NCBI RefSeq assembly: GCF_044324785.1
Contig: NZ_CP172127.1
DNA: 64,000 nt
Strand: one strand, 5' to 3'
Source: Escherichia coli
Lineage (GTDB): Bacteria; Pseudomonadota; Gammaproteobacteria; Enterobacterales; Enterobacteriaceae
Below are positions 29,207 to 31,225 of this stretch, piece by piece. Under the pieces are notes generated by a model. It was not told where the DNA came from. It saw only the letters and a list, made by a program, of their open reading frames with translations, and ran no database searches. A program made the position numbers and the translations under genes. Position 1 is the stretch's first letter, and every line of letters starts with the position of its first letter.

Positions 29207-29598
29207 TTTCCTCTTAGTCTATATTTGAGATGGTGAGTGAACGAGTGCGTTTTGCTGCCATCTCTGTCCCCCAAAAAATAATCAGTATGAATTGATTGGA
29301 GATTACGACTCCGCTATTTGACCTTAAGAAAGTCGGCAAGTCATAGTCATAAATGAGTCTCTTCAATGGCAGACACCTTAGAGATTTACCATCAACTCCC
29401 ATTCACAAACAAACATTAATTATTATCAACACATTCACATTAATTATAAATCATCTCAGACCTTCCTGATAAAAAGATATTAAAGTGAAACATTTTGTTT
29501 TTCACATTTTAGTTCATCACTTTTAGGCGTAAATAAAGGTAAAAAAACAACAATACTATTTCTCTTTCACAAAAGAATTAACAAAAGGTTTTTCAAGG

Positions 29599-30747
29599 AT
29601 GAGTGATATTATTTACCTGAACATAACCGGAGAACAACAAGGATGTATTTCCTCTCGTTGTGGAACGAGCGCATCAATAGGTAATCGCTGGCAGATTGGC
29701 CATGAAGATGAAATCTTCGCGTTCTCGCTCTCTAATAGTATTACGAATACAGGCAAAGGGTCACAATTGCATGGCCTTAGTTTCTGTAAATTGATTGACA
29801 AAAGCTCCCCGTTACTTATTAACGCTATTAACAATAACGAGCAGTTGTTCATGGAGTTTGACTTCTATCGGATCAATAGATTTGGTCGATGGGAGAAATA
29901 TTACAACATTCAACTTCGCGGCGCGCTCTTATCAGCAATCAATCACCTGTTTACTGAGAACAATCTGGATACAGAAACCATCACTGTCAGTTATGAATAT
30001 ATACTCTCCAGGCATCTGATTGCTAATACTGAATTTAGTTATTTGGCATTTCCCGATAACTACAACCGTCTGTTTATACCACGGCCAAAAACTAAAGATG
30101 ATAATGGCCTCAAAACACTCAATAGTAAAGCGGTTGGCAGACTGCTTGCTGCTGGCGGCATATACAATGGGAATATCGAAGGATTCAGGGAAACAGCAAA
30201 CAAGTTGGGAGGAGATGCACCTGCTGGTTACGATCAAGTTATGGATAACAAAGGGTTACTCATCGCTGGTGCTTCAATAGTTGCTGGAGTTGTTCTGGGA
30301 AGAATGAGATTCCCTGATTTGGAATCACTTGAGCATTTCGGAGCCAGAGGAGCAGTATCAGGAAGACCATTTAATCCCGACCTTGCCGGTGGTCCAATAG
30401 AAAATCTGACGACAGATGGCGTAACAATCAACAGGGAAGGTATCGCTATTGTTGAAAAACACATAGCCAGATTTGGTCATGACCCTGTAAATGAAGTGAT
30501 GATCAATAGACTGAAAGACATTGAGAAAGGAAAAATCCCCCCAGAACAAGTAGATCTTAACTTCTATACTCATGAATGTCGGGAATATCAGCGTTACTGT
30601 AATCTTGGTTGGGAAACAGGACAACCTGATGGTGACGCAGGCTATGCACTCTGGAATCATACGCATACTGCTACTCTAGAAGATTATAAACTTAAGGGAG
30701 AACTTAATGACTTATACCACCAGGATGCACTTGACTATGATAACTGA
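29599..30747 (+). CDS. Hcp (T6SS tube protein, TssD) fused to a ~230-aa C-terminal extension; putative Hcp-ET-type effector, toxin domain unassigned
   Basis: 382-aa ORF with RBS AAGGA; N-terminal ~150 aa show Hcp1-family hallmarks (IYLNITGEQQG...TGKGSQLHGLSFCKLIDKSSPLLINAI...FMEFDFYRIN...EKYYNIQLRGA...TITVSYEYI); C-terminal part has no motif I recognise. Confidence 0.7.
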   Translation: MSDIIYLNITGEQQGCISSRCGTSASIGNRWQIGHEDEIFAFSLSNSITNTGKGSQLHGLSFCKLIDKSSPLLINAINNNEQLFMEFDFYRINRFGRWEKYYNIQLRGALLSAINHLFTENNLDTETITVSYEYILSRHLIANTEFSYLAFPDNYNRLFIPRPKTKDDNGLKTLNSKAVGRLLAAGGIYNGNIEGFRETANKLGGDAPAGYDQVMDNKGLLIAGASIVAGVVLGRMRFPDLESLEHFGARGAVSGRPFNPDLAGGPIENLTTDGVTINREGIAIVEKHIARFGHDPVNEVMINRLKDIEKGKIPPEQVDLNFYTHECREYQRYCNLGWETGQPDGDAGYALWNHTHTATLEDYKLKGELNDLYHQDALDYDN

Positions 30748-30982
30748 AACTGAAATTAACGTACTGAAAGTTATGGCTGAGAAAGATATAAACTGGAACT
30801 GGATGAATCTCGATCGCACACTATCTATAAGGCAAATTCCAGGATTCGGTAATGTTGTTAACATTGTTAACAAATTAGCTAACGAGGGTTTGGTTATTAT
30901 TGAGGATAGCGGACATAAGTCTATGCCTCACTACCACGTTACTGAAAAGGGATACAATCTCGTGAAAAGTGAGAATAAATAA
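30737..30982 (+). CDS. Small cytoplasmic protein, candidate cognate immunity protein (possible winged-helix fold)
   Basis: ATG at 30737 overlaps the 3' end of the Hcp-fusion gene by 11 nt (translational coupling); 81 aa, no signal peptide. Confidence 0.5.
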   Translation: MITETEINVLKVMAEKDINWNWMNLDRTLSIRQIPGFGNVVNIVNKLANEGLVIIEDSGHKSMPHYHVTEKGYNLVKSENK

Positions 30983-31128
30983 CGTAGCGTTGATTACTGA
31001 ACAAATCGCTCAGGATTATATTTTGCGAAAAAAATGATTCGGTTATTTCTGTGTCTGAACGGCCGCAGATAGCAAAATGGCTTCCGGTGATGGAAGCCAT
31101 CAGATTATTGGCAAAGTGCGTGTTGTTC

Positions 31129-31225
31129 ATGCCGGATGCGGCGTGAACGCCTTATCTGGCCAACTAAATCTTGAAAATTCAATAAATTGAAGAAATTATG
31201 TAGGCCTGGTATCAGGCAGTTTTGC
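31129..31225. repeat. REP/BIME palindromic units
   Basis: GCCGGATGCGGCGTGAACGCCTTATCTGGCC and GTAGGCCTGGTATCAGGC downstream of metE. Confidence 0.75.

Follow-up and report, generated by a model that had tools for sequence, protein, structure and literature searches.

A small winged-helix protein encoded behind an Hcp-borne toxin domain in Escherichia coli is probably its cognate immunity protein

The window that we analyzed is a stretch of 64,000 nt from the chromosome of Escherichia coli (assembly GCF_044324785.1, contig NZ_CP172127.1), and it contains a small gene on the plus strand (30737..30982) whose start lies within the end of a gene encoding an Hcp-toxin fusion (29599..30747, plus strand). 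We propose that the 81-aa product of this small gene, a cytoplasmic protein with a predicted winged-helix fold, is most probably the cognate class-1 immunity protein of the toxin domain borne by the Hcp fusion. A preliminary description of this DNA, made from the sequence without database searches, had put forward the same reading, and it is supported by our comparison with other genomes, where a partner gene lies downstream of the toxin in 12 of 12 cases, the pair is kept across carrier switches, the classes of toxin and small protein match in 13 of 13 pairs, and orphan copies of the small gene persist.

A profile made from 14 members of the small-protein family was searched against the six-frame open reading frames (ORFs) of all the loci that we fetched, and every one of its 37 matches is on the strand of the toxin. 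At all 12 full-toxin loci found in other genomes, the start of a family member and the toxin stop codon lie no more than a few nt apart, with the two genes overlapping by 11, 4 or 7 nt or, in one case, separated by a 2-nt gap. This pair of genes is kept on Hcp, DUF8093, PAAR and carrier-less N-termini, i.e., the partnership follows the toxin domain, and it is also found on a plasmid. For example, the carrier is Hcp and the site is metE in E. coli, whereas in Atlantibacter hermannii the carrier is DUF8093 and the site is between glpD and glgP. One locus of A. hermannii (L003, 3175-6267) contains two tandem modules of different class, with toxins that are 70% identical and small proteins that are 45% identical. 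In addition, a metagenome contig (L089, 2035-5629) carries a DcrB-family (PF08786) gene, a PAAR/transmembrane-helix effector with the toxin domain, and a homologue of the small protein. Three more small genes, including a member of the Tis1_ImmP family, are located downstream on this contig, and the string as a whole looks like an immunity array.

Family members are also present as orphans, at the end of immunity arrays that belong to unrelated toxins sharing the same linker (loci L036, L045, L070 and L078), and at a further locus (L043) a family member sits beside a toxin remnant. Examination of five loci that have only the linker in common with the gene in the window, carry unrelated toxins (in one case a true HNH toxin with a 164-aa gene behind it, of the Hcp-ET1 type) and contain a family member demonstrated that the family member either ends a string of small genes or adjoins a toxin remnant and an insertion sequence (IS), as is typical of orphan immunity genes. 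The Citrobacter youngae locus (L078, 2485-4729) consists of an Hcp-linker-toxin gene with a true HNH toxin, a 164-aa gene, an 85-aa gene and the winged-helix orphan. The 5′ end of this orphan retains the reading MHLTMITETE of a displaced class-1 toxin tail, and this remnant is the apparent footprint of the replacement of a toxin end by recombination. In a high-GC metagenome contig (L091, 277-918), a toxin tail and a homologue of the small protein form one continuous ORF, which would be either a natural fusion or an artefact of sequencing or assembly.

The pairs fall into classes. Toxin tails are of three kinds (...DALxYDN, ...DLFHPDAxK and ...DLYHPDAPxW), as are the small proteins (MITETE.., MTIT..EFNVLKVM.EKDIDW and MVN.TELNILKLLASR.DVNWTWYN), and the class of the tail, the class of the small protein and the type of overlap are concordant in each of the 13 pairs compared: the genes overlap by 11 nt in class 1, mostly by 4 nt in class 2 (with the 2-nt gap in one pair) and by 7 nt in class 3. 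The class-3 small protein of Atlantibacter has 97 aa. A fourth class is seen in locus L024. Pairwise identities of the toxins and of the small proteins are correlated (Mantel r 0.71, reached by 0 of 5000 permutations), and the small proteins diverge faster, with identities of 34-99% compared with 62-99% for the toxins. This co-diversification is consistent with immunity and is not decisive, since linkage of the two genes contributes to the Mantel correlation.

Our survey of 5426 complete E. coli genomes demonstrated that 848 (~16%) contain the class-1 small gene. The gene is at least 95% identical in 118 genomes, where it lies behind a class-1 toxin, and 90-95% identical in 730. The toxin domain is present in 820 of the 5426 (118 of class 1 and 702 of class 2), and 28 genomes contain the small gene with no detectable toxin domain. 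In ~730 genomes, the class-1 gene is an orphan located behind a class-2 toxin and the 85-aa paralogue that belongs to this toxin; the order in the class-2 allele, e.g., in strains UTI89 and Seattle 1946, is toxin, 85-aa paralogue (4-nt overlap) and intact class-1 orphan. The class-2 toxin often has an internal stop, and the small gene remains undamaged where IS1 or IS3 has broken the toxin or a stop interrupts it. In many E. coli genomes, an internal stop or a frameshift has made a pseudogene of the Hcp-toxin gene at metE, with the small gene or genes intact; examples are UTI89 (L009, 1021-2728), Seattle 1946 (L010) and N3 (L001, 1900-3047). The toxin gene is intact in the window and frameshifted in N3, the nearest genome.

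According to the preliminary description, the ATG of the small gene overlaps the last codons of the Hcp fusion, and this is what we find: the ATG at 30737 lies 11 nt inside the toxin gene, whose TGA is at 30745-30747. Through this 11-nt overlap (ATGATAACTGA, 30737..30747, plus strand), translation of the small gene would be coupled to that of the toxin gene. The small gene runs for 81 codons from the ATG at 30737-30739 to the stop at 30980-30982, its product contains exactly the peptide quoted in the preliminary description, and the absence of a signal peptide claimed there also holds, since a search for an N-terminal hydrophobic stretch, a signal peptide or a transmembrane segment found none in this ~81-aa protein (the Kyte-Doolittle 19-mer maximum is 1.07, in helix 3). 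The longest ORF is 30707..30982 (plus strand; 91 aa counted from its first ATG), and it contains three in-frame candidate ATGs, at 30707, 30725 and 30737. The 30707 ATG has a strong Shine-Dalgarno-like AAGGGAG at 30694-30700 with a 6-nt spacer, and metagenome gene callers choose the corresponding 91-aa form (P0001), while the 30737 ATG has AGGA at 30722-25 with an 11-nt spacer and is the start favored by the Prokaryotic Genome Annotation Pipeline (PGAP) and by homologues. Proteins of other genera and of the two other classes start 5-7 residues ahead of a helix with the pattern E-x-N-[VI]-L-K, and the Citrobacter, Atlantibacter and Mangrovibacter homologues have starts equivalent to 30737. We consider 30737 to be the conserved start because homologues begin there and because the ATG at 30707 is missing from the Atlantibacter copy. 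The segment 30707..30736 (plus strand), with the ATGs at 30707 and 30725 inside the 3′ end of the toxin gene, is non-conserved, and a 10-aa extension from 30707 is possible for the window allele alone. Class-1 pairs of Atlantibacter have an overlap of identical length, 11 nt (ATGATAACTAA), and in near-identical genomes PGAP annotates exactly the 246-nt coding sequence (CDS) as a “hypothetical protein” (WP_000627422.1 / WP_000627420.1).

The toxin gene upstream encodes a protein of 382 aa made up of Hcp (TssD), a linker and a C-terminal toxin domain. That this gene is an Hcp fusion, as first described, is confirmed by a match of residues 1-147 to TIGR03344 (TssD) of 124.9 bits, above the curated cut-off of 58.9, which identifies the N-terminus as a tube protein of a type VI secretion system (T6SS); Pfam T6SS_HCP matches residues 6-135 (E 4.9e-14), and the ~235 residues beyond the Hcp domain have zero Pfam matches. 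PGAP names the gene tssD (1149 bp) in PCN033, an extraintestinal pathogenic E. coli (ExPEC) of pigs, and the fusion in the window is very probably the “Hcp3” of this strain, a gene of 1149 bp that is remote from the cluster of T6SS genes and shows no homology in its second half (Peng 2016, PMC4882540). Hcp3 has been reported to affect host-cell invasion by porcine ExPEC.

The linker or pre-toxin segment (30115..30336, plus strand; LNSKAVGRLLAAGGIYNGN ... and a hydrophobic helix LLIAGASIVAGVVLGRMRF at nt 30256-30312) is common to many effectors, and its hydrophobic helix is a borderline transmembrane segment (Kyte-Doolittle 19-mer maximum 1.69, aa 220-238). Residues 161-382, used as a query, returned 613 clusters with N-termini that are Hcp (PF05638), DUF8093 (PF26362) or unannotated. 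In a scan in which each species was represented by one genome, 74 loci were recovered; the whole C-terminal region is matched in 12 of these, and ~60 match only the linker (query residues 1-64/85), with other toxin ends following. The protein is therefore modular, with a carrier, a shared linker and an exchangeable toxin, and this build is that of a polymorphic toxin. The linker (RLLAAGGIYNGN and the hydrophobic helix) connects varied toxin ends with N-termini that are Hcp, DUF8093 or unannotated, and it might act as a module for translocation or for recombination.

The toxin domain itself (30337..30744, plus strand; 136 aa, FGARG...DALDYDN) is acidic (isoelectric point (pI) 4.9) and predicted to be all-alpha, with conserved motifs YTHE..E..RY.NLGW and WN..HTATLE[DE]. 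Sequence and profile searches of this domain against Pfam, NCBIfam and the PDB gave zero matches. The AlphaFold2 (AF2) model places helices at residues 33-44, 50-63, 71-89, 99-116 and 123-135, with a predicted local distance difference test (pLDDT) mostly of 84-98. Source annotations name some fragments of the toxin “HNH endonuclease” (P0100, P0147) or “colicin” (P0044); these names are unsupported, because the AF2 model is all-alpha and the domain has no database match.

Searching AFDB50 with Foldseek, we identified relatives of this domain that share 44-50% of residues with it at the C-termini (~130 aa) of many colicin-like bacteriocins, and the domain also on PAAR and RHS carriers; by tblastn the toxin domain is present on 35 plasmids. 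For example, a 7-kb E. coli plasmid and a 5.8-kb Klebsiella ColRNAI plasmid carry a classic enzymatic-colicin operon with this domain (loci L098, NZ_CP075644.1, 1611-4359, and L099, NZ_CP065166.1, 1063-4381); a third bacteriocin locus that contains it is L095 (1-3861). On these ColE1-type plasmids, the order is activity gene, an 87-90-aa gene on the same strand and a lysis gene, with one of the two plasmids containing a further annotated immunity gene ahead of the lysis gene. The product of the activity gene has 747 aa, with a Pyocin_S match at 468-597 and no annotation at its C-terminal end. The activity gene overlaps the 87-90-aa gene by 4 nt on the E. coli plasmid and is separated from it by a 10-nt gap on the Klebsiella plasmid. 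The chromosome of Serratia plymuthica contains three toxin ends in tandem, each followed by an 87-90-aa gene. The 87-90-aa partners belong to no Pfam family, and when aligned to the winged-helix family they match over 63 columns in congruent register (hhalign probability 42%, E 2.6e-4). Judged from these sequence comparisons and from the structure model, the toxin domain looks like an unnamed all-alpha cytotoxic class common to T6SS effectors and colicin-like bacteriocins.

The small protein was modeled by AF2 from a 91-sequence alignment with a pLDDT of 94.2 and a predicted template modeling score (pTM) of 0.83. The predicted topology (helix 4-15, a one-residue strand, helices 22-31 and 40-49, strands 53-56 and 65-68, helix 70-80) is that of a winged helix with a beta-hairpin, and the preliminary suggestion of a winged helix-turn-helix-like pattern is thus well founded at the level of the model. 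A comparison of winged-helix profiles with those of known immunity families had been suggested as a check; winged-helix profiles match faintly (E 0.004-0.1), and Im (PF01320) does not match. In the wider family, nearly all members are stand-alone proteins of 75-105 aa with the signature W.WY.LDRALS...GL....P.Y.IT..G, a median pI of 6.2 and a net charge of -1, and helix 3 and the wing contain few conserved basic residues.

We also modeled the toxin domain and the small protein as one chain, joined by a (G4S)6 linker, from an alignment of 15 paired rows plus unpaired rows. This single run gave a pLDDT of 80.4 and a pTM of 0.70; both domains are mostly at 80-98, and the linker is below 50. With the larger domain making up 55% of the chain and disordered residues 15%, this pTM is suggestive of a confident relative placement of the toxin and the small protein.

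Several other explanations of the small gene were weighed. That it is a chance ORF, made from the 3′ end of the toxin gene plus intergenic DNA, is a reading for which its small size alone speaks, and one that we have already rejected as close to impossible, given conservation from Escherichia to Rahnella and beyond, purifying selection (dN/dS of 0.23-0.33 between the window copy and the E. coli orphans, with few substitutions) and a confidently predicted fold. The family profile matches the small gene of the window at E 2.5e-46, with the window sequence itself being part of the profile, and it matches independent homologues down to E ~1e-45; among 1.84 billion proteins, the family has 113 representatives at E ≤ 1e-3. 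A dedicated transcriptional regulator of the MarR type with no role in immunity is suggested by the winged-helix fold and by source annotations, in which P0003, P0011, P0025 and others are labeled “MarR family transcriptional regulator”; databases call these homologues MarR because the winged-helix fold is of a DNA-binding type. The preliminary description had kept a regulator as its alternative, and this alternative did not hold up, as MarR models are sub-threshold, dimerization helices are missing and there is no covariation with promoters. MarR-family sequence models have no significant match to the small protein, the best Pfam models being HTH_45, EarA, PadR and DUF4364 at E 0.004-0.1; the best MarR match in the PDB has an E of 0.04, and in NCBIfam only Lrs14 is matched, at 14.8 bits against a cut-off of 90. 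The protein has the winged helix-turn-helix expected of a MarR regulator, and at 81 aa it lacks the size (~140-160 aa) and the dimerization helices of one. The small gene co-varies with the C-terminal tail of the toxin, i.e., with the 3′ end of the toxin gene, and not with promoters: upstream regions track the carrier, being alike among Hcp loci across classes of the small protein and likewise among DUF8093 loci. A search for operators upstream of hcp found only weak AT-rich palindromes, no more than expected in DNA of 31% GC, and the two genes leave no space between them for a promoter, nor does a promoter-like sequence occur there. Orphan arrays, and retention of the small gene after decay of the toxin, would make no sense for a regulator of the toxin gene, and a family that is near neutral, with few conserved basic residues in helix 3 and the wing, is a poor fit to a dedicated regulator. 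We consider a dedicated regulator highly improbable, and the source names of both partners, for which no model is significant, are likely to be propagated misnomers.

Many type II antitoxins autoregulate their own operon by binding DNA, and a small protein with two roles, neutralizing the toxin and using its winged helix to bind DNA and autoregulate the operon, is a combination that we regard as unlikely, albeit less so than a regulator alone. Few basic residues are conserved in the recognition helix and the wing, the median pI is near neutral as given above, the palindromes are weak and orphans are located behind foreign toxin operons; in addition, class-1 proteins are found behind unrelated promoters, as two class-1 loci with different carriers (Hcp and DUF8093) have no common upstream word of at least 9 nt. 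A further candidate role is that of a secretion adaptor or chaperone that stabilizes or loads the Hcp-toxin instead of protecting the cell. A small cytoplasmic protein that is co-translated with an effector, and that may contact it, as the fused model suggests, is compatible with this role. Known T6SS adaptors are usually encoded upstream of the effector and follow the carrier, whereas the same partner is found here with Hcp, PAAR and DUF8093 carriers and, as a remote look-alike, with Tol/Ton-type bacteriocins; the PAAR version has its own upstream DcrB-family (PF08786) gene yet retains the downstream small gene, and orphan copies persist without any effector. An adaptor thus seems very doubtful.

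Some observations weigh against an immunity protein. The sole signal of contact between the two proteins is the fused-chain model, which is no more than suggestive; the fold is that of DNA-binding regulators; physical linkage alone inflates the Mantel correlation; the 87-90-aa proteins of the colicin operons resemble the small-protein family weakly (hhalign 42%); and the distant members at L090, L092 and L094 are not adjacent to a recognizable copy of the toxin domain, with the contexts of distant members (P0193, P0213, P0198 and P0180) lying on short contigs and being uninformative. In PCN033, deletion of hcp3 did not reduce killing of K-12 strain W3110 (PMC4882540), and the antibacterial activity of the toxin is unproven because killing was unchanged in this mutant; most of the killing of W3110 in that study came from other effectors. 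The deletion took the whole 1149-bp ORF, including the ATG of the small gene, and complementation with hcp3 alone was tolerated with no toxicity reported, although the fragment used is ambiguous in the methods (PMC4882540).

If the small protein is an immunity protein, as we propose, the hcp-toxin gene and the small gene would be transcribed together, with their translation coupled by the 11-nt overlap. A T6SS would deliver the Hcp-toxin, and entry of the toxin domain into the cytoplasm of the target might, speculatively, be aided by the shared linker and its hydrophobic helix. In the producer, the small cytoplasmic winged-helix protein would bind the all-alpha toxin domain at a ratio of ~1:1 and block it, as the modeling suggests, and it would also block toxin injected by sister cells. 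The winged helix would serve as a protein-binding scaffold, and not as a dedicated transcription factor, with specificity residing in variable surface positions (in helix 3, in the wing and where helix 2 ends) and giving rise to three or four classes, if not more. Strains in which a class-2 pair took over would have kept the class-1 gene as an orphan that protects them from class-1 neighbors.

An immunity gene behind a polymorphic toxin is a textbook concept that would not surprise a specialist, and the small protein is a new, uncharacterized family within this well-known kind of system. Enzymatic colicins and S-type pyocins with their Im proteins (e.g., ColE9/Im9) are the closest functional analogues of the pair in the window: their toxin domain can be 44-50% identical to that of the Hcp fusion, a small immunity gene on the same strand is followed by a lysis gene, and the logic of tight 1:1 inhibition, specificity classes and orphan immunities would be alike. 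In contrast, the toxin domain in the window matches no cytotoxic profile in Pfam, including those of the five nuclease-bacteriocin classes (Sharp 2017), and the small protein differs from Im (PF01320) in having no Pfam match and a winged helix in place of the four-helix Im fold. From winged-helix factors of the MarR, PadR and RosR types the small protein differs in its low identity (12-24%) and sub-threshold hidden Markov model scores, in having no dimerization helices and a non-basic recognition helix and wing, and in a gene context that is exclusively toxin-associated in every locus that could be closely checked.

As described in reviews and a preprint, Hcp-ET1/ETI1 of Shiga toxin-producing E. 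coli is an orphan hcp fused to a C-terminal HNH/colicin-DNase toxin with an immunity gene downstream (PMC6730261, PMC6099711, PMC9990079, bioRxiv 10.1101/2024.03.05.583533). It resembles the pair in the window in its Hcp-toxin fusion, its downstream immunity gene and its conserved linker architecture (compare L078), and differs in that its HNH/colicin-DNase domain is recognizable by Pfam, whereas the toxin in the window has no HNH match and is predicted to be all-alpha. At the L078-type locus, the partner of the HNH toxin is ~164 aa, and the family described here is represented solely by the orphan that closes the array. Identity with Hcp-ET1/ETI1, as described in those reviews, was rejected, as strain 55989 carries Hcp-ET1 with no insert at metE and as there is no HNH/colicin-DNase Pfam match. 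Usp/Imu1-3 (Hcp-ET3-4), with an Hcp-like N-terminus, Pyocin_S PF06958, a colicin DNase and three immunity genes, shares an Hcp-type carrier, a bacteriocin-derived killing domain and tandem small immunity genes including extra copies, and differs in its HNH toxin and in its locus (UTI89_C0121 versus metE). PF06958 is a segment of the translocation domain and not a toxin (PMC5536347), and identity with Hcp-ET3-4/Usp (“Pyocin S3”) was rejected, as PF06958 is absent from the protein in the window. PT1/PIM1 and PT7/PIM7 are DNase pairs of novel fold for which crystal structures of the complexes have been described (bioRxiv 10.1101/2021.10.19.465003); they are similar in having a short unannotated C-terminal toxin, PAAR or other carriers and, encoded downstream, a small immunity protein that covers the active site. 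Identity with PT1/PIM1 (Nachmias et al.) or PT7/PIM7 was rejected because structures of the described complexes are expected to be in the PDB, yet no PDB chain is matched by the toxin or the small protein. Our literature search found nothing on this toxin domain or on winged-helix immunity proteins, with the original Hcp-ET paper (Ma et al. 2017) being outside that search.

Taken more broadly, the toxin and the small protein could be an uncharacterized and widespread module, in which an all-alpha domain arms T6SS effectors (on Hcp, PAAR, DUF8093 and RHS) and also does the killing in colicin-like bacteriocins, i.e., as a further enzymatic bacteriocin class beyond the five, and is neutralized by a stand-alone winged helix, normally a fold for DNA binding; we advance this wider proposal tentatively and with reservations. 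The winged-helix protein of such a module could have a further role in sensing or mimicking nucleic acid or in autoregulation. The partnered toxin domain is the more interesting part of the finding. Its presence in bacteriocins of ColE1 plasmids hints at a cytotoxic activity not yet studied, and a winged-helix immunity protein, if true, would be a DNA-binding fold recruited for inhibition of a toxin. For the orphan “Hcp3,” the locus offers an effector-immunity pair that is compact and can be tested, and the class structure, with at least three classes and orphans, predicts which strains of E. coli, Citrobacter, Salmonella, Pantoea and Cronobacter can kill which others. The mislabel is widespread, with the small gene carried by ~16% of complete E. 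coli genomes, mostly as an orphan.

The gene order of the window is that of an E. coli chromosome segment, rmuC-udp-ysgA ... metE-metR-bioP, and a composition scan identified an inserted low-GC islet of ~1.9 kb (29250..31150, no strand assigned; 31-46% GC, the flanks having 52-58%) that separates ysgA from metE. The islet contains two genes on the plus strand, 29599-30747 (382 aa) and the small ORF, and it is absent from K-12-like strains, e.g., 55989, where metE and ysgA are neighbors. A scan of the islet for promoters and terminators found none above the shuffled expectation, and none between the toxin gene and the small gene. The genomes nearest to this locus are N3 (99.9% identity) and PCN033 (98.7%). 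Between the small gene and metE, at 31100-31165, there is a GC-rich palindrome (gccggatgcggcgtgaacgccttatctggcc), which we take to resemble a repetitive extragenic palindromic (REP) element. In PCN033, a 123-nt “hypothetical” CDS (WP_001230617.1), whose counterpart is not among the window ORFs of at least 40 aa, is annotated just upstream of or over the equivalent palindrome.

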